A stretch of DNA of 64,000 nt from positions 32,001 to 96,000 of the forward strand of contig JBHLMN010000011.1 of assembly GCA_048938105.1 (NCBI GenBank), read 5' to 3'. Source of the DNA: Promethearchaeota archaeon (GTDB lineage Archaea; Asgardarchaeota; Heimdallarchaeia; Hodarchaeales; Hodarchaeaceae). A program made the translations under genes and the position numbers. The stretch's first letter is position 1, and each line of letters opens with the position of its first letter. This document shows, piece after piece, positions 726 to 53,467 of this stretch. The notes beneath the pieces were generated by a model. That model saw only the letters and a list, made by a program, of their open reading frames with translations, ran no database searches and was not told where the DNA came from.

Positions 726-3326
726 TTATTTTAAGAAAACGGTTAACGGAATAATAAGAGCTCCTTGTTGCGCCTCACTTTCTTTAATATGAATCCCAAA
801 ACGTTTACTGGCTCCAAGGATTTCCCTTACATAATGTAATCGGTCAATTTCTTTCTCTTCCTTCTGAAAAACATCGGGATGATAAGCTCTAAGATATTGG
901 GGTTCATTAGGAGGACCTTTTGCAATAATATAAGGGAAACCATCCCACTTCTTCCATTCTTGTTCAGGATCTAGACTCATCTGTTCGCAATAATGTAAAA
1001 AGGCACCAATTGCTGGAGTTTTTGATTTATATTTGGTTGGAGAGCGCCGCAATGGGCCTCGAATCGTTAATTCTTGAATCAACTGAGAAATTGGATTTCT
1101 TAAAATTTCTCGACTGATGTTAAAAATCACTCTGCGAGCATTTTCTCTTCGTTCATCCGTTAGATCTGTCAAAAGCGTTTCGAGGAGCTCTCGTTGTGCT
1201 TTTCTTGCTAAAGGTGACCAATCTGATCTTACAGCCTCAAAACCTCTAATAATGATACTGTTAGACAACAAAGATACATAGGCATAGGCTTTCTTTCTTC
1301 CTTTCTTCAATATAATTCGAGAAGCTATATCCTCAAGCTGTAATTCAAGGAATTCGTGCAATTTTTTAGATAAAAATGATCTATATTCATTTATCGCATC
1401 AAGAATCTCTCTTTCTTTTGAGCTTCTTACCTCGATTGGTATTTCTGGTTGAAAATCTGCTAACTGTATATTAGGCAATTCAAATTCAACAAAAATTGAA
1501 TCAGTATCTCCATATCGAAGATACACATTGTATTTATGTCTATCTGAGTAATCATTAGTCCAATTCTCTAACTTTTCACTTAATAATTCCCTAGCGATGG
1601 CTGTGATACTGTTTGCTATAATGTGGTGATAAAATCTTCCTCGGGGATAGTTTGATGCACCTAAAAGAGAATTGGCCATTAATTTTAACGATATTTGTCT
1701 CTTTTCAAGGAGATCTGTCTGTTTTTGAGAATTCTGTACCCCATTTTCATTTATTTTTGTTAATTCCTCTATTGTTTGATAACGTTGCTCAAGAATTCGA
1801 TCCATCAAAATTGCAAGGGCACCACGAGGTTCTTTTAAGAAGCGTTTCTCTGGAGGAAATCTTTCTGAATCCGCAATCAAAGTTTCTCCAGAAATATTAT
1901 GTGTCCTGACAATATTAGGGTATAATGATCTGAAATCGAAAATTCCCACCATCGTAGCTTCGTCAACAGAAGGATCTATTACCCACCCACCCAAATGGGG
2001 GTATTTTCGACCAAATTCTTTCCTTGCTTTTAATTCTGTAGGAGTGGGTTTTGATGGGATAAACATGTTCTTTGAATGAAGAATCCTCATTAACTCGAGC
2101 TCACCGATATTTCTACTCGTCGAAAGAATCCCTTCAGGTATTGGATATCCAGTTAGACGACATAATTCAATTGAATTTGAAACCCCTAACTCAGAAGCCA
2201 ATTTAAACGTAAGAATTGCATCTCTTAATGAATACTCTCGGAATAATTGTGCATCTTCTTTGGATCCAAGTGACCCATCTCTCCACAACTCATCAAGACT
2301 CTTTTCCAGCTTGATTTTAGACTCACCTAATACTTCTTCTGACACTGAGTCGAGTGTCTTTTGTCCACTAATAGGGTGAATTCCCCAGGTTTTTGGCAAC
2401 AAATCTACCACTGCTCGTCCCTTCAATCTGTAACTTTCTACAGGAATATTTGATTTAATGATGTCCTTTTGAAGTCCTGTGAAAAGCGCCAATTCTCCCA
2501 AGGATTTTCCATATTTTGATAAACGAGCCGTTAAATAGGGGATGTCGAAAAATGTTCCATTAAATGAGAGTAAAACATCAGGTTTAATCTTCTTAACAGT
2601 CTTCAGAAAAGTAGTTAACAATTCATTTTCAGCATTATCGCTATCCTTTTCTAGAATGATAACCTTCGAGTCAGGGTTCTCTGTTTCTACAGTACCCCAA
2701 GCCATTGAAATTGCTGTAATTCTTCTTTTTTTCTCAAGTAATAATTCATGTATAGTTTCACCCTGCTTATAATCAACTTCAATATCAAAAGCGAGAAGAA
2801 GAGGTTGATAATCACTAGAAACCTCCGTTTTTTGCGAGAGGTTTTCAAAAGGTGCTTCTACAATAAGAATGTCATTATCTCGCTTAATTATCGTTCCTAT
2901 CACTGTGACTGCATGTAAAGCCCGTATATTCCTATCAATCAAGAAACGACGGGTAAATGGAATGTCTGCTTCATGAACAACGATGTTTGCATGTTGAAGA
3001 AGTTGTTTGATTTCAGGAACACGATAAGGGATGTTTCCAACCAATTGGGTTACATCTCGTGCAGATCCACCAAAAAAAATTTGTTTTTTACATCTTGAAG
3101 TTTTAATTAACCATTCTTTCGTCTGGTTTCCCCCTTTGGTCAGAATTTTCCTTATATCTTCTTCTGAAGCTTCTGCATAAAAGTATGGAAGAAAACCACT
3201 GACTCGTATTTCTACTCGTTTATTGCTAGATCTACCCCAGAGACGAAGAAGCGGTTTCTTAATTCCTTCATCCACATAAATCTCGTAATCAGCATCTAAG
3301 AGGATAAAGTCGATCGATGTGTTCAC
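726..3326 (-). CDS. polB: Family B DNA polymerase (archaeal PolB-type)
   Basis: Exo motifs AFDIE, FNGTFFDIPYL, YSLRDA; polymerase motifs DFRSLYP, KLMANSLLG, YGDTDS. Confidence 0.95.
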   Translation of the reverse strand: MNTSIDFILLDADYEIYVDEGIKKPLLRLWGRSSNKRVEIRVSGFLPYFYAEASEEDIRKILTKGGNQTKEWLIKTSRCKKQIFFGGSARDVTQLVGNIPYRVPEIKQLLQHANIVVHEADIPFTRRFLIDRNIRALHAVTVIGTIIKRDNDILIVEAPFENLSQKTEVSSDYQPLLLAFDIEVDYKQGETIHELLLEKKRRITAISMAWGTVETENPDSKVIILEKDSDNAENELLTTFLKTVKKIKPDVLLSFNGTFFDIPYLTARLSKYGKSLGELALFTGLQKDIIKSNIPVESYRLKGRAVVDLLPKTWGIHPISGQKTLDSVSEEVLGESKIKLEKSLDELWRDGSLGSKEDAQLFREYSLRDAILTFKLASELGVSNSIELCRLTGYPIPEGILSTSRNIGELELMRILHSKNMFIPSKPTPTELKARKEFGRKYPHLGGWVIDPSVDEATMVGIFDFRSLYPNIVRTHNISGETLIADSERFPPEKRFLKEPRGALAILMDRILEQRYQTIEELTKINENGVQNSQKQTDLLEKRQISLKLMANSLLGASNYPRGRFYHHIIANSITAIARELLSEKLENWTNDYSDRHKYNVYLRYGDTDSIFVEFELPNIQLADFQPEIPIEVRSSKEREILDAINEYRSFLSKKLHEFLELQLEDIASRIILKKGRKKAYAYVSLLSNSIIIRGFEAVRSDWSPLARKAQRELLETLLTDLTDERRENARRVIFNISREILRNPISQLIQELTIRGPLRRSPTKYKSKTPAIGAFLHYCEQMSLDPEQEWKKWDGFPYIIAKGPPNEPQYLRAYHPDVFQKEEKEIDRLHYVREILGASKRFGIHIKESEAQQGALIIPLTVFLK

Positions 3327-3568
3327 TATAGATTACACCGAGATGTTCTAACTGTTAGTAACTTCGATTTGTAATCATTTAAGTTTAATACTAAAACTAT
3401 ATGTTATGTCAGATTTTCATGATATTGAAGAAAAGAATCGTTTGGAAGAATCAAAGACATCTCATATTTTGAATTAACCAATAGTAGAAAATATGAAATA
3501 ATGTGGGAAAATTAAATCGAAATCGGGGAGAATTACTTTGAAAACAGAGTAAAGTGCTTTAATAAATT

Positions 3569-4930
3569 ATGGTTATAGTAAATATTCCTGAGTTCATCAT
3601 TTTCAGGATAGACTACGGTATGGTAATGTTGACACGGAAATTTACAATAAACCCTACGAAAGACCAAGTAGAAATTCTGTGTGAATTAGCAAACGTGTGC
3701 CGATTGCTTTACAATCATGCCTTAGCAGAACGAAAGTTCTGCTATGACAACTATCGAGTGTCTCTTTCTTATAAAGATCAACAAAACGCATTATCCTCCC
3801 TCAAGCGTAAATATCCACTCTATCAACAAGTCTATTCAAAAGTCCTCCAAATGGCTTTGAAGAAACTGGATAATGCATTTAAAGCGTTTTTTGGGTTACA
3901 GAAGAACGGAGAAAAAACAGCACATCCCCCCACATTCCGTGGGAAAAATCATTTCTTTACATTATGCTATAACCAATCAGGTTTTAGAATCAACAAGAAA
4001 TCGATCCAATTTTCTCATAAACACCCTAGTAGGATCCCATTAAAATTTAAAGTCCCATTCGATTTTACCTCCAGGAAAGTTAAACAAATTGAGATTTTTC
4101 AGGATCGATATGAAAAGTGTTTCTACCTCGCGGTCACCTACGAGCAGGATGAACTCCCCTATTATGATAATGGATTGTATCAAGCGTTTGATTTAGGAAT
4201 AGTAAAACATATTGGGATTAATTTGCAGGGGAAGTTTCTCAAAACAAAATTGAAACGCCCAGACAAGTACTGGGAACCTAAGATCCACTCCTTACAGCGT
4301 AGGAAAGATCACTGTAAAAAAAATAGTCGCAGGTACCGCTTATTCAATCAACGACTGATAACCATTCAACGGAGATGTAAAAATCAGACGAAAGATTGGC
4401 AACATAAACAAGCCTTGAATCTGCTGAAAAATACTAAAGCTAATACCATCATTGTTGGTAATTTATCCCCAAAAAGGATGGTACGGAATTGTAACGTTAG
4501 ATTGAATAGTAGAAACTATCTGAAAAAAGTCAATAGAGGTGTCCATAATACTGGGCATCTTGGTCGCTTTGTTGAATTACTGACCTATAAAGCTCGAATT
4601 TTAGGTAAAAGAGTAACAGTAATTGACGAACGTGATACTACAAAGACCTGTTCTGGATGTGGACATAAAAAGGAATTTATGCCCCTCAATCAACGCAAAT
4701 ATTCTTGTGAGATTTGTGGAACCGTGCTAGATCGTGATAAAAATTCGGCTATCAATATCATGAAACGGTTTCTCTCCTATAATGCTCTGTGGACGAGCTA
4801 TCATATTTTTTTGAAAAATCTTGATAATCTGCGACATACAGCCAATGGTCAAACGAAAGTTCCCTATCTACAGTTAGATGGGTTCAGAGGACTCGCAGAA
4901 AGTCTTTGAATGAATTCAAGGATAGTTCAC
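3569..4930 (+). mobile_element. Non-autonomous IS200/IS605-type (tnpB-only) element; right end at TCAC 4927-4930, left end not located
   Basis: No tnpA nearby; subterminal hairpin ctttgaat/attcaagg followed by tagTTCAC, typical of IS605-group right ends. Confidence 0.7.
3620..4909 (+). CDS. tnpB: TnpB RNA-guided endonuclease (IS200/IS605 family)
   Basis: N-terminal HTH region (CRLLYNHAL), RuvC-I AFDLG, Zn finger CSGC...CEIC, RuvC-III DRDKNSAINI; start at ATG 3620 or 3626 preferred over 3569. Confidence 0.93.
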   Translation: MVMLTRKFTINPTKDQVEILCELANVCRLLYNHALAERKFCYDNYRVSLSYKDQQNALSSLKRKYPLYQQVYSKVLQMALKKLDNAFKAFFGLQKNGEKTAHPPTFRGKNHFFTLCYNQSGFRINKKSIQFSHKHPSRIPLKFKVPFDFTSRKVKQIEIFQDRYEKCFYLAVTYEQDELPYYDNGLYQAFDLGIVKHIGINLQGKFLKTKLKRPDKYWEPKIHSLQRRKDHCKKNSRRYRLFNQRLITIQRRCKNQTKDWQHKQALNLLKNTKANTIIVGNLSPKRMVRNCNVRLNSRNYLKKVNRGVHNTGHLGRFVELLTYKARILGKRVTVIDERDTTKTCSGCGHKKEFMPLNQRKYSCEICGTVLDRDKNSAINIMKRFLSYNALWTSYHIFLKNLDNLRHTANGQTKVPYLQLDGFRGLAESL

Positions 4931-4950
4931 GTTCTATATTTAATGGCAAG
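4790..4950 (+). ncRNA. Predicted TnpB reRNA/omegaRNA (scaffold plus guide)
   Basis: Overlaps tnpB 3' end; stem tctgcga (4828-4834)/tcgcaga (4893-4899), internal hairpin cctatcta-cagt-tagatggg, terminal hairpin, then TCAC and flanking guide; 5' boundary approximate. Confidence 0.6.
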
Positions 4951-6885
4951 AAAATTAATAACCTCTGCTGCATCTTCAGCAGAGTCAGCAGCTTGCTCGA
5001 TTATATTAATAACATCTTTAATGGCATACCAAGTCCCATAATGCATTCCACGAGAAACAATGAAAAGATGTTGATTCATCATTTGATACAATAAATCAAG
5101 ATCTGATTCACGATCACGAATTATACGATAAACCCCAGTAACAGCGTCTAACTTGATCTCGAGTACTTGAAGAATGTCTACTGTAGTTCTAACCAACCCA
5201 CGTAACGCAATTGCGGCATCATGTAGCTTCTCTTGAATCAAGGGGGGTACTTCTTCAATAGGAATAGTTTGAATTCGAAATAATGCTCCTAAGGTTAAGC
5301 CAGCAACACGATCTAAGCGTCTTGCAATTCGTAAGAAATTCCCAGCATCAGGTGTTTTAACCATACTTTTGTAAGTCTGTACTGCAATTTCCTCTAATTG
5401 TTGATCAGCTTGCACTTCCAATTCTTTTGCTTGTAATGAGTATCTTGTCAGTTTTTTCTGAAAATTTGATTTTTCCATTGCTTCTTGTTCGAGATATACT
5501 ATTAATCCCTTGGTTCCCTGTATTACAGATGCTTCTACTAGTTGAGCATGTTTTAAACATGTATGGAACTGAACCCAACCTGGGTGTGTCTCTCGGACTA
5601 CAATAGTACTAAATGCTCCAATCAATAACAACAAACCTGCTGTATGTAGAGGTACATGTAAAATTTGGTCTAATCGCTCTGGATTTGAATCAAACCAAAT
5701 TTGAGTAACGAATCCAGCTACTAAAGGACCAGTAAAGTAACCAAAATCCTTCACAGCACGATAAAAGCCAATAATTCTTGGTTTTTGGTCTTCAGGAGCG
5801 ATATCAACTGAAATCGATGGTAATATAGGATAATAAAGGCCCACACCAACTCCTCCTAATAATGAAAGGATGAATAAAACCGGGAATGGGGAAATTCCTG
5901 TTTGTAAACCGAATAAAGCAAGAGCTTCAACAATAAGACCAAGAAATGTGGGTGCTTTTCGACCAATTTTATCACTAATATTGCCTGCTAGAGGCATTAT
6001 CGCGGCCCAAGATAATGTAAAAACTCCTGTGATTAATCCCGTCTCTGCAATTGAAAGCCTATAACCATATAATGTACTACTGAGTAATAGAGGGAGAAAT
6101 AATACAATGATACTATCCACCATTTTACTAATGTGGCCGTTTAAACAGGTGATAATTACGGTCGGCCTAATTATGAGATTTCTAAATCGTAGAACAGTTC
6201 TGGGTCTTTCAATTGGGGTACGAAGCTTTTCTAACATTTCTTGAGTATCAGATTTGACACTTGACCTCACAGCAGTTATTGCAATTATTAAACCGAAGAA
6301 AGAAACAATAACTGAGAATATGAAGACTGCACCAAACTTATTTGTCATCATAGTTATCCAGCCGGCCGTTATTGCTCCAAAAGAATACCCTCCAAAAACT
6401 GCCATTTCCATGACACCCATCCATTGAGCACGTCTAGATACAGTACTTACATCAGAGAGGTAGGTCATTGCACTAGCATAAAGCAGCCCTTCACCAACAC
6501 CAAGAATTGAATTTCCAATGCCTAAAAATAAAGGATCTCCCTCTGATAATAGAAGAGGAATAGCTCCCAAGACAAAACACCCCACCCCAAGAAGAATCAT
6601 AATTTTGGTGCCGATTTTCTGAGTATATACGCTTGTAAAAAGCCCTGCTAAGGCTTTAAAAAACCCAAAACCCGCTAAAGTAAAGGCAATAGATATCCAT
6701 GCCCAATTTTCAAACCATTTTGAAAATTCAAGTTGCTCTTCAGCGAAGGTTGAGAGAATGGTACGTTGAACCCCGTAAGAAGAAGCAACAAAAAAAAGGA
6801 CGCAAAGAATTCCTACAATTAAATATATTCGATCTGGTTTTTTCTCATTGACAGTTTTTTCCATATTTTCTTCCTTATCTATCAT
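4927..6885 (-). CDS. MFS transporter fused to a C-terminal DUF47/PhoU-like helical domain
   Basis: About 12 TM segments with MFS motif GNISDKIGRK; C-terminal ~210 aa with ELEVQADQ, RESDLD and ADSAEDAA patterns typical of DUF47. Confidence 0.85.
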   Translation of the reverse strand: MIDKEENMEKTVNEKKPDRIYLIVGILCVLFFVASSYGVQRTILSTFAEEQLEFSKWFENWAWISIAFTLAGFGFFKALAGLFTSVYTQKIGTKIMILLGVGCFVLGAIPLLLSEGDPLFLGIGNSILGVGEGLLYASAMTYLSDVSTVSRRAQWMGVMEMAVFGGYSFGAITAGWITMMTNKFGAVFIFSVIVSFFGLIIAITAVRSSVKSDTQEMLEKLRTPIERPRTVLRFRNLIIRPTVIITCLNGHISKMVDSIIVLFLPLLLSSTLYGYRLSIAETGLITGVFTLSWAAIMPLAGNISDKIGRKAPTFLGLIVEALALFGLQTGISPFPVLFILSLLGGVGVGLYYPILPSISVDIAPEDQKPRIIGFYRAVKDFGYFTGPLVAGFVTQIWFDSNPERLDQILHVPLHTAGLLLLIGAFSTIVVRETHPGWVQFHTCLKHAQLVEASVIQGTKGLIVYLEQEAMEKSNFQKKLTRYSLQAKELEVQADQQLEEIAVQTYKSMVKTPDAGNFLRIARRLDRVAGLTLGALFRIQTIPIEEVPPLIQEKLHDAAIALRGLVRTTVDILQVLEIKLDAVTGVYRIIRDRESDLDLLYQMMNQHLFIVSRGMHYGTWYAIKDVINIIEQAADSAEDAAEVINFLAIKYRT

Positions 6886-7086
6886 GAAAGACTACCCAAG
6901 GAGTTGTTCAAATTGAATTTTTTTCTATTACCTTTTCTTATTAAATGTAATTATCTCATAATTTATAGTATTATAAGAGAACTCAGTTAATATCCAAACC
7001 TAGAGATGAAAATAAACTCAAGGAAAAAAAAAGAAATTGAGGAAAATTAATCACAATACTGTTGAATTTGAGCTGATGAACTCAAA

Positions 7087-8070
7087 TCAATCTACGTTAT
7101 ATTTCCCACGGGATACTATATCAAGGAATCGAACAATGAGAAACATTTCAATAATACCCACACCGATTCCAACTACCAATAACACTATTATAATGAAGAT
7201 AACTGCACTAGTAACGTCAGTGAAGAAATCTGGTTGGGATGCTAACACAAATAATCCACTGAAAAATGTATATATACCCAGAGCATAAGATAAAAGCAAG
7301 TTTTTTCGATGAAATGCTATTGTCCTATTTGTAAGTCGTTCAGATCCAATAATTAATGAACTCAGTACCCGATTAAACATTAGATATATCCCATTTAAGA
7401 TTTCAAAAATCCTCGTGGGGGCCGTATAAACGAAATTAAACGATTTTGAGACAACTTTTATAAAAGCTGAAACTATTCCTGTTTCTGATAATACTATCAA
7501 GACCACAGCAATAATGACTCCCACAACACCAATTCCTATAAAGAGAGTTAAAGGATTATCTACCAAACCACCCCATATAAGCTCGATTAGGAATCGGAGA
7601 ATATCAATAATCCCACTTCTACGTTCGGTTCCATCAGGTCTATAACCAATTCCAATTACTGTTAATATTACTTCAATAATTAAAGCTGAAATGTCATAAA
7701 TCGCTTGTAAAAAGCCTTCAAGCCCAGTAATTTTTTGGAGAATCTCATCTATAACATCTGTTCCGAAAAGCCATACTAGAATTGATAACAGAATCCCTGA
7801 AAAAAGTCCGACGAAAATAAAGAAGGTTGGAATGCTTTCCATAAACCAACGTTCGTCTTCATTTAGAGCTTTTTCTGCTGCTTCCTTGGTTCTAACAAAA
7901 CGGATAGAACGCCCGAAAACACGAAAAATCCAGACATATGGCCAAAAAATAACTTTAAGTACATTCTTAATGAAACGCCAAATACTAGCAAAAATGGCCT
8001 TTAAATCTTCTGAACCAAAGCCATCACTCAAATCAAAAGTGTATCTACCTTTTTTAACTTTTTCTGTCAA
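7087..8070 (-). CDS. Multi-pass membrane protein, function unknown
   Basis: 327 aa ORF with several hydrophobic helices; gaggttg upstream of a TTG start. Confidence 0.8.
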   Translation of the reverse strand: MTEKVKKGRYTFDLSDGFGSEDLKAIFASIWRFIKNVLKVIFWPYVWIFRVFGRSIRFVRTKEAAEKALNEDERWFMESIPTFFIFVGLFSGILLSILVWLFGTDVIDEILQKITGLEGFLQAIYDISALIIEVILTVIGIGYRPDGTERRSGIIDILRFLIELIWGGLVDNPLTLFIGIGVVGVIIAVVLIVLSETGIVSAFIKVVSKSFNFVYTAPTRIFEILNGIYLMFNRVLSSLIIGSERLTNRTIAFHRKNLLLSYALGIYTFFSGLFVLASQPDFFTDVTSAVIFIIIVLLVVGIGVGIIEMFLIVRFLDIVSRGKYNVD

Positions 8071-10175: not shown

Positions 10176-11654
10176 TTACCTTTTGAGATCTCGAAAATCT
10201 TTTTTTAATTGGGCCATTGTTTTCAAAAAATCACGATATGGTTTCCTTTTTATGCGATAATAGTTCTTAATTAATGATAGGGGAATAAGACGACAAAGAA
10301 GTCTGATAAAATACCAAGGATAAGCTCTACGGATATTTGTATTGAAAAGCCAATCTAAGCTTTTGAAATTATCATATAGATATTCTGTTAATATTTCTAC
10401 TTCTTCTGTAGTCAAGTAGGAGGTTTTTATATTTGCTGACAAAGCATCATATTTACTATAATCGTTAAGATTAGTTACCAACTTTTTTTGAAGTAAAATC
10501 TCACGAATTTGAGTATTTGGATAGGGAGTTAGTACAAAAAAAATTGGAGCATCTGCCTTTATTTGCTTAATGTAATGAAGAATATTTAAAAAATCATGAG
10601 TATTATCGTCTGGATTACCAACTATGAATCCACCTAATGAAATCGCCCTGTAACCCCTGATTTGTGCTACGACTGCTTCAGCCTTACTTGCCATATTTGA
10701 GACAGATTTTCCAATTGTTTGTAATTTGTTTTGACGTGGATTCTCTATTCCTAAGAAGAATGCGGTAAAATTGGCTTCTAAAGCTTTTTTTAACAGCTTA
10801 GGTTTATTATACAAACTTCCAACATGAGCTTGAGTGGTATAATGGATATCAGTTAGACCTCTTTCAATGATTCCTTCACAGAGGTTCTGAAAATGGTTAG
10901 AACTCAAGCTTATATTATCATCTGCAAAGAAAATTGCTTTAACTCCTTGTTTCTTACAAATCTCAATATCATTTAGTATACGCTCTATTGGATAAGTCCG
11001 AAAGCTCCGTCCATACATTTTATTTATAGAACAGAACTTACAAGCATATTTACATCCTCGGGAAGTTTCGATTACATCTGCTTTCCGTCCAAGAATATGA
11101 AATCCTTTCTTTAATAATCGGATATTTCGGTTTGGTAAATTTAAAATAGATAAATCGGTTAGAGATCTCCAAGGATTGTGAATGAACCGCCCATTATGCT
11201 GGTAGGACAAACCTTTGATGTTTTGTAAATTTGTTTCATTATTATCAAGAGCTAGAAGTAATTCTTGAAAGGTATGTTCCCCTTCTCCTTTAATAATAAA
11301 ATCTAGGTCATTTCTCCAGGAGTATCCGATTTCTTGAGGCAGCATGGAAGCATGATAACCACCCAAAGCGATTTTGATTTCTGGATCAATGGTTTTAATG
11401 AATCTTGCGATAGATCTAGCAGTTTTACTCTGAAAACTCATAGATGAGAGTCCAACAAGATCTGGTGTATGTTTTATAATCCTAGATTCTAGAAATTTCC
11501 TGAAGTTTCGCCTTATAAGGACTAGATCCGCAATAGCGACCTCATGTTCCTCATTAATATTGCCTGCTAGAGAACAAAGAGCTAAATTAGGAAGTACTGC
11601 AAAATGATGGAAAAAATATGCTGTATTAGGCATGGCTAATAATAGTACACGCAT
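10176..11654 (-). CDS. Cobalamin-binding radical SAM protein
   Basis: N-terminal B12 domain (PDLVGLS, GGYHAS, GEGE); ETSRGCKYACKFC; FADDN. Confidence 0.92.
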   Translation of the reverse strand: MRVLLLAMPNTAYFFHHFAVLPNLALCSLAGNINEEHEVAIADLVLIRRNFRKFLESRIIKHTPDLVGLSSMSFQSKTARSIARFIKTIDPEIKIALGGYHASMLPQEIGYSWRNDLDFIIKGEGEHTFQELLLALDNNETNLQNIKGLSYQHNGRFIHNPWRSLTDLSILNLPNRNIRLLKKGFHILGRKADVIETSRGCKYACKFCSINKMYGRSFRTYPIERILNDIEICKKQGVKAIFFADDNISLSSNHFQNLCEGIIERGLTDIHYTTQAHVGSLYNKPKLLKKALEANFTAFFLGIENPRQNKLQTIGKSVSNMASKAEAVVAQIRGYRAISLGGFIVGNPDDNTHDFLNILHYIKQIKADAPIFFVLTPYPNTQIREILLQKKLVTNLNDYSKYDALSANIKTSYLTTEEVEILTEYLYDNFKSLDWLFNTNIRRAYPWYFIRLLCRLIPLSLIKNYYRIKRKPYRDFLKTMAQLKKDFRDLKR

Positions 11655-13540: not shown

Positions 13541-13896
13541 CTCTAATACAATTTATTAAACCCATTTTAGTAGAAGAAAAGGTAAAGTAGTAGAAGTATA
13601 TTTACAAATTATTATTTTTTTTATTTTCTTTATTCTACTGCTTCCGCCTCATTTATCACTAAAGATATTATTTTTTTTCTACTTCCATTAGGAATGTACC
13701 TTTTAAACACTTGAAGAAGCCATGAAATACTCTCTTCTGGAGTGAGGATAAGTTTAATTGAATAAGAAAACAATTTTCCGCGCAGTACGGGGGTCAGAAC
13801 TATCTTTTTGATTCATCAATTCATTAAAGATTAGTGTAGCCCACTTTCTTTCTATGTAATAATTCTGGAGAAAAGGATAAAGAGAAGGCGAAATAC

Positions 13897-14043
13897 TTGA
13901 CTAAAAAGGCTAAGACTCTAGAGCTGATGATATCTAGAGAAAAAATCGAGATAACATCACACTCAGAAGTACTTCACCCATTGGAACGAAAATATGGAAA
14001 AGAACCAAAAATAAATCCAAAAGATTTGTGGCATTGGCACTAA
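13897..14043 (+). CDS. 48 aa microprotein (KYGKEPKI-WxWH family, copy 1)
   Basis: TTG start after a purine-rich tract; MTKKAKTLELMISREKIEITSHSEVLHPLERKYGKEPKINPKDLWHWH*; homologous to 52137-52268; start uncertain. Confidence 0.7.
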   Translation: MTKKAKTLELMISREKIEITSHSEVLHPLERKYGKEPKINPKDLWHWH

Positions 14044-51813: not shown

Positions 51814-52136
51814 CCTTATCAACTCTAGAAATACTATTACCATAGTTTTATCGGTATTAGCTAATTTATTTTTTATCTGCAAATATCTTTCTCTCGGGTT
51901 TTTTAAACTCTTGTCAAGAAAATATTAAACAATTTCATCTCAATGTAGTAATGGTTAAAATCAAGCTCGAGTCTTTAATTTAGGGACTGCTTTTAACAAT
52001 AGAAATAATTGAGGCACACAAAGGCATAATTACAGCTCAGAGTGAGGGAATGGGTAATAAATAACCTTTTGTATTACCTTATTACGAGAGAAATTAATAG
52101 AACCTAAGTAAAAATAACTAAACAGAACAGGATAGA

Positions 52137-52268
52137 TTAATGCCAGTACCAACGCATTTTCTCTAATTCTTCTGCAGAAATCTTGGGTTCCTTGCCGTAC
52201 TTCTTTTCCAAATCATTGTACTTCTTAATAGTACCTTTGGGTAGGTTTTTGTGATGAGACGATGACAT
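52137..52268 (-). CDS. 43 aa microprotein (KYGKEPKI-WxWH family, copy 2)
   Basis: MSSSHHKNLPKGTIKKYNDLEKKYGKEPKISAEELEKMRWYWH*; TTTAAA 26-31 nt upstream of the ATG (leaderless-type promoter). Confidence 0.75.
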   Translation of the reverse strand: MSSSHHKNLPKGTIKKYNDLEKKYGKEPKISAEELEKMRWYWH

Positions 52269-52390
52269 ACAATTTTCATTATAGTATGAACCCTTTAAAC
52301 TCGAAAGAGAGAGAGTTAATCGAAAATGAAACTATGGTAGTGAATGAAGATTTATAAAGAGCTTAATCATCTATATAATTGATGATAAGT

Positions 52391-52753: not shown

Positions 52754-53467
52754 TTGAGTATGCGTTTAGATGAATGGCTGGTTCAAACGCAATATTTTTC
52801 TTCCAGATCAAAAGCTAATCGCTTCATTCGAAATATTGGGGTAATTATAAATGAAAAACTTGTGAAAAAACCAGCTTATAAAGTAAAACTTCATGACCAT
52901 GTTAATATTGAGGAATCAGCACTTCAGACTTTTACAAAACCGTTAGGTTATGTCAAAATGAAATGGTTATCTTCAAATCCTCATTTCCCTCCCATTAATC
53001 TGCAAGATAAATGCTTAGATATAGGTGCAAGTGCTGGAGGATTTAGTCTTTATCTGTTAGAACAAAATGTACACTCTGTGCTAGCAATTGAAATCTCACC
53101 AGATTTTAAGCCATTTTTAGAAGAAATCCAAAATAAATTCCCTAATAAGTTCTCATATTGGATAAAAGATTTTTTTAAAATAACTTCCAATAGTTTTCCT
53201 TGTCTTTTCAATCTTATCACAGCTGATTTAACATTGGATCCCTATTTTTTACTTGAGAAATTAGAGCTTTTTACTTCACTCTTACAACCATCTTCAATTC
53301 AAGCACGTCTTCTATTAACAATTAAAACTGGGAAAATCACAAATTTTAAAGATGTACTGGTGAAAATTGAGCAAAATGTTGATGATCTTTGTACAGATAT
53401 ATCCCTTAAATGGCTAGAATCATTACCAGATAAACAAGAACAATTTCTACTTCTTTTAAAGTCGTAG
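52754..53467 (+). CDS. TlyA-like rRNA 2'-O-methyltransferase (S4 + FtsJ domains)
   Basis: MRLDEWL...SRSKA...KPAY (S4); LDIGASAGGFS. Confidence 0.85.
   Translation: MSMRLDEWLVQTQYFSSRSKANRFIRNIGVIINEKLVKKPAYKVKLHDHVNIEESALQTFTKPLGYVKMKWLSSNPHFPPINLQDKCLDIGASAGGFSLYLLEQNVHSVLAIEISPDFKPFLEEIQNKFPNKFSYWIKDFFKITSNSFPCLFNLITADLTLDPYFLLEKLELFTSLLQPSSIQARLLLTIKTGKITNFKDVLVKIEQNVDDLCTDISLKWLESLPDKQEQFLLLLKS

Follow-up and report, generated by a model that had tools for sequence, protein, structure and literature searches.

A 64,000-nucleotide stretch of a Promethearchaeota genome (the window; contig JBHLMN010000011.1, positions 32,001 to 96,000 of the forward strand) contains two very short open reading frames, 38 kb apart and on opposite strands, that end in almost the same peptide, and this raises the question of whether they are genes and, if they are, what such a peptide does in the cell. 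To our knowledge, annotation of Asgard genomes is largely blind to microproteins, and we know of none with a described function in the order thought to be closest to the eukaryotes.

A first-pass annotation of the window, made from the letters alone, had noted a shared block with synonymous codon changes, W-x-W-H ends and unrelated N-termini, and had inferred selection on the peptide; both ORFs were found where it placed them and end as it described. The analysis below asks how far this family extends, under which constraints it has evolved, and which modes of action its sequence, neighbourhoods and relatives would allow.

A microprotein family defined by its C-terminus

The two reading frames, copy 1 and copy 2 (Table 1), share L-E-x-K-Y-G-K-E-P-K-I and a terminal W-x-W-H that is followed directly by the stop codon, and the codons used for the block K-Y-G-K-E-P-K-I differ between them. 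Given the six-frame residue frequencies of the window itself, chance would produce this 8-mer 5e-6 times per window, and a degenerate DNA pattern for the core matched 16 of 60 genomes (this genome and 15 of its 20 genus relatives) with zero matches of the reversed control in 60 genomes, so chance is excluded as the source of the likeness.

Copy 1 encodes 48 residues if translation begins at the TTG at 13897 and 38 residues if the ATG at 13927 is used. Which of the two is the true start is uncertain; the TTG is positionally kept in the sole ortholog (G003, L037) and the ATG is not. This ortholog, present in G003 only (L037/L010), is 75% identical to copy 1 across all 48 residues. Against the family HMM, copy 1 scores 54.9-56.2 bits and copy 2 scores 57-64 bits. 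The module of copy 1 reads h-P-L-E-x-K-Y-G-K-E-P-K-I, a 5-residue linker and W-H-W-H, and that of copy 2 reads x-L-E-K-K-Y-G-K-E-P-K-I-S, a 9-residue linker that AF2 predicts to be helical, and W-Y-W-H.

Alignments of 23 members from the genus (A1) and of 53 sequences with metagenomic members added (A2) place both copies in a family of proteins of about 28-60 residues (36-89 aa among metagenomic clusters). All 53 members keep one Lys, one Gly, one Pro and the final His without exception, and conservation is 90% or higher at L, E, Y, E and the penultimate W. Two types can be told apart, a long type that includes copy 2 (Y-L-E-[KR]-K-Y-G-K-E-P-K-I-[ST], ~9 residues with an E-E-L pattern, then [RQ]-W-x-W-H) and a short type that includes copy 1 and a further copy on contig C8 (h-H-P-L-E-x-K-Y-G-K-E-P-K-I, ~5 residues, then W-x-W-H). 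The linker between the two conserved blocks spans ~5 residues in short-type and 9 in long-type members, with intermediate lengths elsewhere in the family, and the middle residue of W-x-W varies among N, S, H, Y, K, T, R, A and Q. The N-terminal parts have a polar composition with many Ser, Lys, Asn and acidic residues and can be aligned among close orthologs only, so that, as the first-pass annotation had remarked for the two copies, a variable front precedes a conserved C-terminus that runs to the stop. The N-terminal 10-30 residues are a variable, polar tail that is probably disordered.

The proposal that selection acts on the peptide is borne out by a dN/dS of ~0.1 (16 long-type genes over their final 25 codons and 7 short-type genes over their final 21), by saturated synonymous divergence (mean dS ~1.7 among unsaturated pairs, most pairs being saturated) and by the invariant core. 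Every synonymous codon occurs at the fixed L, E, K, Y, G, P and I positions, and this synonymous turnover at invariant residues establishes which frame is read and excludes DNA or RNA as the level of conservation. A search of the whole window against Rfam had no match, so the conservation is not attributable to a known RNA family. Purifying selection in frame, promoter and T-run signals and conservation across species were thus all found, as for a stand-alone, translated microprotein gene, and they confirm that both ORFs are coding genes of a real microprotein family under strong purifying selection on the last 21-25 residues.

Table 1. Positions of family members, their signals and neighbouring features (window coordinates unless a contig is named).
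Feature	Position	Strand	Basis or remark
Copy 1, short-type microprotein gene	13897..14043	+	ORF, translation; TAA stop 14041-14043
Copy 1 C-terminal module, last 23 residues	13972..14040	+	alignments A1, A2, A4
Purine-rich GGAG...GAGAAGG, candidate SD-like element	13867..13888	+	read from sequence
Copy 2, long-type microprotein gene	52137..52268	-	43 aa; ATG 52268-52266, TAA 52139-52137
Copy 2 C-terminal module, last 25 residues	52140..52214	-	alignments; per-codon synonymous variation; AF2
Long-type conserved promoter block	52292..52328	-	conserved in at least 14 long-type loci
T5 run, candidate archaeal oligo-T terminator	52110..52114	-	22 nt past copy 2 stop
Third intact copy	G000:C8:2061-2198	-	45 aa from GTG; six-frame scan
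Decayed fourth copy, locus-B short-type pseudogene	G000:C6:158301-158477 = L101:2802-2978		alignment with orthologs
P0005 gene	L129 (Logan SRR14802573 contig) 7001-7177		mobile-element-like contig, 13.8 kb, 34.5% GC
B12-binding radical-SAM gene, then DUF4064 membrane protein	10179-11654	-	2.2 kb upstream of copy 1
B12 radical-SAM gene and ABC-2 exporter	L040 (G011:C44) 2471-7247		upstream of a short-type paralog
Basic ORF of 43-47 aa	52379-52522	+	ATG 52391
Basic ORF of 39 aa	52616-52735	+	start M-P-R-K-G-K-G-V
TlyA-like methylase gene	52754-53467

Expression signals

Different signals precede the two types. Short-type genes have GTG or TTG starts behind purine-rich, SD-like sequences. The stretch before copy 1, a candidate Shine-Dalgarno-like element, ends 8 nt 5' of the TTG and is kept in the G003 ortholog, and the C8 copy has GGTGA before its GTG, starting 11 nt and ending 6 nt upstream.

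Long-type genes have a conserved promoter block of ~37 nt, which in copy 2 consists of CATTTTC, 6 nt, a CT-rich run, TTTCGAG and a TATA box, TTTAAA, at 52299-52294. This TATA box ends 25 nt 5' of the ATG, and the gap is 24-25 nt among scored loci (23-25 nt when overlapping TATA matches are counted). In the usual archaeal geometry the TATA box is centred ~26-27 nt upstream of the start site, so this spacing implies a leaderless or near-leaderless mRNA. The full block occurs once in the 5.85 Mb genome and nowhere else in it, and therefore defines no regulon.

On the 3' side, a run of T5 or longer lies within 50 nt past the stop in 24 of 41 loci, whereas random 50-nt windows drawn from these loci have one in 15.5% of cases (binomial p = 3e-10), and all three stop codons are in use in the family. 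With their own promoter or SD-like signals and T-runs, the genes have the appearance of small monocistronic units.

Gene neighbourhoods

A gene-neighbourhood analysis, which the first-pass annotation had proposed, showed that two loci (A and B) are common to the genus and that paralogs lie elsewhere in unrelated contexts with no conserved maturase. Locus A, of the long type, has genes for a PPDK_N-like protein, a carbonic anhydrase and a TlyA-like S4/FtsJ methylase (divergent), the microprotein gene, and then tldD and pmbA on the same strand, ~255 nt 3' of copy 2. The position of copy 2 between the TlyA-like gene and tldD/pmbA is likewise occupied in most genomes of the genus. This linkage is loose, since other genes are inserted in three genomes, and in G001 and G016, where tldD lies ~6.6 kb off, neither tlyA nor tldD adjoins the long-type gene. 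In G015, an assembly that is 70% complete, tldD was not found and two family members are retained.

Locus B, of the short type, is always divergent from a gene for a TPR protein of ~470-510 aa, followed by genes for a HAD hydrolase and an S8 subtilase, and its other flank is variable. A complex prediction for the locus-B TPR protein and its cognate short-type peptide (L082; A3, A4) gave a score of 0.00, which counts neither way. The copy on C8, like the additional ones in G011 and G012, lies at an unrelated location.

Several other genes near these loci deserve mention in their own right. The B12-binding radical-SAM gene upstream of copy 1 (Table 1) belongs to a set of only ~5 paralogs per genome, and it is syntenic in G008, G009, G011 and G018, all of which have no microprotein gene beside it. 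In G011, a B12 radical-SAM gene and an ABC-2 exporter (two permeases and an ATPase) precede a short-type paralog in a layout that resembles a RiPP cluster and is absent at the orthologous radical-SAM gene of G000 (C59:23626-25071).

On the other side of copy 2, a very basic 39-aa ORF ends 18 nt before the TlyA-like methylase gene. It is present in single copy in 18 of 20 genus genomes and in no other genus of the class, travels with tlyA where that gene is relocated, and had no match in Pfam or NCBIfam; it is a second genus-specific microprotein, with a possible ribosome- or rRNA-related role. Between it and copy 2, and divergent from the latter, lies the basic ORF of 43-47 aa, which is kept in five closely related genomes only.

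Further copies, a pseudogene and a mobile-element variant

A six-frame scan of the whole genome (G000; a 5.85 Mb assembly of 35% GC) revealed the intact copy on C8 and a decayed copy on C6. The latter adjoins an intact TPR gene and is the locus-B pseudogene of this genome. Relative to the intact orthologs (G003, G009, G011) it has six point substitutions, all in otherwise invariant codons: single-base changes replace the invariant Glu, Tyr, Gly and Pro and the terminal His, and one more introduces a premature stop. The decay of this relic strikes residues that are otherwise frozen in the family, and the locus-B copy of G000 has been lost in the presence of two intact extra paralogs.

One metagenomic member, P0005 (58 aa), has a Cys4 zinc ribbon before the family module, and this module is 88% identical to that of the G009 long type (79% at the DNA level). 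Its gene overlaps both neighbours in an operon that contains a 704-aa AAA ATPase gene, an endonuclease VII/HNH-like gene and a D12 methyltransferase gene, and the operon adjoins a tyrosine integrase gene and many tiny ORFs. No homolog of the ATPase was found in 21 genus genomes. Several other divergent members also sit among dense small ORFs, on contigs too short for classification, and PHROG scans of the neighbours of divergent metagenomic members returned a ribonucleotide-reductase fragment beside P0024 only. This one clear mobile-element case indicates that the module is a portable, transferable unit, and suggests that it may address something a mobile element wants to reach.

Distribution

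Within the GTDB genus of the window, the family profile matched 19 of 20 genomes and missed only a 1.4 Mb assembly that is 71% complete; the usual complement per genome is one long-type gene at the fixed locus and one to three short-type genes. The motif search across Asgard genomes that the first-pass annotation had suggested thus gave matches in one genus, and no credible match to the profile in 17 other genera of the class or in 84 other Asgard genera (399 genomes searched). Similarly, when 185,579 prokaryote species, each represented by one genome, were scanned with a pattern, 21 loci came out, which coincide with the genus genomes already found; the titles of these MAGs name Hodarchaeota, Heimdallarchaeota (including the closed CP070695.1, B3_Heim), Promethearchaeota and Hermodarchaeota only. 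The family was therefore found only in one genus of Hodarchaeales. A scan of IMG/VR had no relative.

A profile search of 1.84 billion protein representatives of any length added ~37 metagenomic clusters, of 36-89 aa and all ending in (W-x-)W-H, so homologues do exist beyond the window; none of these members carries a source name. The first-pass annotation had allowed that both ORFs could be C-terminal remnants of a longer protein family, a reading that is rejected because no long protein among these representatives bears the motif and in-frame stops lie just 5' of the ORFs.

Two long profile hits, P0031 and P0037, were rejected as family members, being repeat noise without the terminal motif. 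P0037 (1068 aa, metagenomic) has eight 63-residue units, each with K-K-Y-G-P-E-P-E-V, and its likeness to the family core probably reflects a widespread helix-cap/loop motif rather than homology. A 542-aa 'Mg2+-importing ATPase' in one 90% cluster has no motif and is a clustering artefact.

The family also went unrecognised in the first-pass annotation, and it remained so in database searches. For the two copies, Pfam-A returned 0 families at E <= 1 and NCBIfam 0 families at E <= 5, and a PDB sequence profile search gave chance hits only (E >= 0.003, unrelated proteins). Fold searches (Foldseek PDB, VIA-align wide) had no match, and an ESM Atlas feature search had no usable hit. A word-index homolog search recovered the query itself only, and it was the profile search that recovered the family. 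The motif string was in no paper found in the literature, where nothing relevant on Asgard microproteins appeared either, so the family is apparently previously undescribed.

Predicted structure and a proposed mode of action

AF2 models made with the family alignment (pTM ~0.3) have a disordered front and a module with pLDDT ~85, the module being so tiny that the models say little. For copy 2 the prediction has a helix at residues 19-24, a loop and a helix at residues 32-38, and for a short-type orthologue (the G009 locus-B copy) a helix, a loop and a short 3-10 turn. The predicted first helix ends at the invariant Gly, the E-P-x-I loop comes next and W-x-W-H lies at the end. In such models the hydrophobic residues L, Y, I, L, W and W might pack into a tiny core or else present a binding face.

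From these features we infer a mechanism of docking in trans. The functional unit would be the last 21-25 residues, carried by two subtypes, the long (one per genome, at a fixed locus) and the short (one to three per genome). The module would start with a short amphipathic helix, h-L-E-x-K-Y, capped by the invariant Gly, continue through a Pro-containing loop, x-E-P-x-I, and a linker whose length differs among members and which is predicted to be helical in the long type, and close on a free C-terminus with the invariant Trp-His, in most cases as W-x-W-H. Anchored by the terminal W-H carboxylate on one side and by the K-Y-G-x-E-P block on the other, it may dock on, or regulate in trans, a conserved cellular macromolecule (protein or nucleic acid). 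That the family is a free-standing, independently transcribed microprotein whose module acts in this way on a partner encoded elsewhere has, in our estimate, an even chance of being right. The first-pass annotation had proposed a motif-type regulator with a free, metal- or partner-binding C-terminal W-x-W-H; such a regulator fits all observations, its binding of a metal or partner being putative. Against a distant partner, the recurrent neighbours tldD/pmbA (long type) and the TPR protein gene (locus-B short type) could point to a specific local one.

Known systems offer partial parallels. The Methanosarcina mazei protein sP26 is reportedly an archaeal small regulatory protein that binds glutamine synthetase, and such small proteins have in common with the Hodarchaeal family a stand-alone gene of <50 aa with its own promoter, a lineage-restricted distribution and presumed binding of a larger partner. 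They differ in that there is no sequence relation and that in the Hodarchaeal family a genome has several paralogs and the free C-terminus is strictly conserved. Proteasome activators carry the HbYX motif and PCNA clients the PIP box; these C-terminal docking motifs share with the family an invariant aromatic residue next to a free C-terminal carboxylate and portability, here into a mobile-element protein too. However, the family follows neither the HbYX consensus (hydrophobic-Tyr-any) nor the PIP consensus (Q-x-x-[LIM]-x-x-[FY]-[FY]), as in alignment A2 Trp is the penultimate residue, preceded by a variable and mostly polar one, and a Q-x-x-h register is absent.

Alternative explanations

Among other explanations, the module could be a minimal nucleic-acid- or metal-binding minidomain, either a helix-extended loop-helix like SAP/HeH with Trp stacking or a metal site built from Glu, Glu, His and the carboxylate. 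Its layout of helix, Gly, extended loop and helix, which we take to resemble SAP/HeH motifs, agrees with this idea, as do the net positive charge of the module, the invariance of Glu, Glu and the terminal His, and the fusion of one variant to a zinc ribbon in a DNA-metabolism operon of a mobile element; however, the lack of any match in Pfam, NCBIfam or PDB sequences or in the fold searches, and extra His residues of the short type that are not conserved in the long type, make it improbable. The proximity of copy 2 to tldD-pmbA on the same strand, which recurs in most genomes of the genus and on a metagenomic contig with the divergent member P0019, would instead accord with the long-type peptide being a substrate or regulator of the TldD/PmbA (TldD/E) metalloprotease, which would trim it or be plugged by it. 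TldD/E acts on small unfolded peptides, for example the microcin B17 precursor and CcdA, and the likeness to the former (McbA) lies in a small gene for an unfolded peptide beside genes of the tldD/tldE family. Unlike that system, the Hodarchaeal loci have no heterocyclase genes and form separate transcription units, the microprotein gene having its own promoter and T-run and gaps of 200-400 nt; adjacency is not universal, being broken by the insertions, in G001 and G016 and perhaps in G015, and paralogs elsewhere of the short type bear the same module with no such neighbour. Descent alone also predicts synteny inside one genus, and a TldD/PmbA-directed role seems distinctly improbable.

The first-pass annotation had also raised the possibility of a RiPP-like precursor with an aromatic core, and a RiPP- or cofactor-like precursor could have its W-x-W cross-linked as in daropeptides, streptide and triceptides. 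The family shares with DarA a short peptide with W-x-W near the C-terminus (W-N-W in many long-type members), as the darobactin core contains W-N-W (PMC9055067), and the DarA of P. khanii has P-K-I, five residues and W-N-W, which is the short-type spacing from P-K-I to the first Trp (PMC8694152, Table 1). Radical-SAM genes of the B12 type, ~5 per genome, lie 2.2 kb from copy 1 and, with the ABC-2 exporter, near the G011 paralog. Yet no radical-SAM, YcaO or other maturase gene occurs within ~6 kb of either genus-wide locus, and no modification genes were seen in the flanks of these loci; the orthologs of the copy-1 radical-SAM gene have no family member beside them and flanks that are not syntenic, the G000 ortholog of the G011 gene has no nearby copy, and G000 has six SPASM radical-SAM genes, each either on a different contig or 135 kb off. 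The Hodarchaeal genes also differ from DarA genes in being chromosomal and archaeal, with neither an adjacent DarE-type radical-SAM gene nor a transporter, and their peptides have no Lys/Arg at core position 5, end at His, and have a variable front with no conserved leader and no I-T-A before the core (PMC8694152, PMC9055067). The daropeptide core W-N-W-x-[KR]-x-F (or W-x-aromatic) with a conserved leader was accordingly not found in the family. Nor do DarA peptides as a group conserve the P-K-I stretch; the leader residues that matter in them are at other positions. In the family any of several residues may stand in the middle of W-x-W, only one residue follows the second Trp, and the putative leader is the variable part, so that a variable front and an invariant end reverse the typical leader/core pattern. 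The absence of a conserved adjacent maturase, the non-syntenic radical-SAM genes, the distant SPASM genes and this reversed conservation together disfavour a RiPP, which we consider very unlikely. Equally hard to credit is a cis-acting regulatory nascent peptide, that is, an arrest or termination-stalling leader that controls the downstream gene in the manner of TnaC or SecM. In the family as in those peptides, only the C-terminal ~25 residues are conserved, with Trp and Pro prominent among them. In the family this stretch is about as long as the exit tunnel, runs up to the stop and follows a variable front; Lys is prominent as well, and the next gene is co-directional in 30 of 39 scored loci. 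However, nine loci, including the G003 ortholog of copy 1, are convergent with the next gene, and orthologous loci have different downstream genes; the 5- to 9-residue linker varies the distance from block to stop, which a mechanism based on tunnel geometry would tolerate poorly. Moreover, three stop codons are used, the genes have their own terminator-like T-run, unlike TnaC and SecM, and the module is also fused behind a zinc ribbon in mid-operon.

Implications

A bolder version of docking in trans holds that the module is a new portable docking peptide for a central Hodarchaeales machine, such as the replisome or a proteostasis hub, that several paralogous microproteins put it to use in the cell, and that mobile elements have copied the module and fused it to a zinc ribbon so as to reach this hub as well. 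We regard this extension as doubtful, and if true, it would make the family an archaeal counterpart of the PIP-box and HbYX-type motif systems, defined by a free W-H carboxylate. As the active part would be only ~25 residues, it can be synthesised and used directly as bait for a partner, so its function is testable without a cultured host.

In Hodarchaeales, this is a family that has been kept through saturating synonymous change and that has been duplicated, lost and taken up at least once by a mobile element. Should its partner turn out to be a core machine, a regulatory layer specific to this lineage would come to light.
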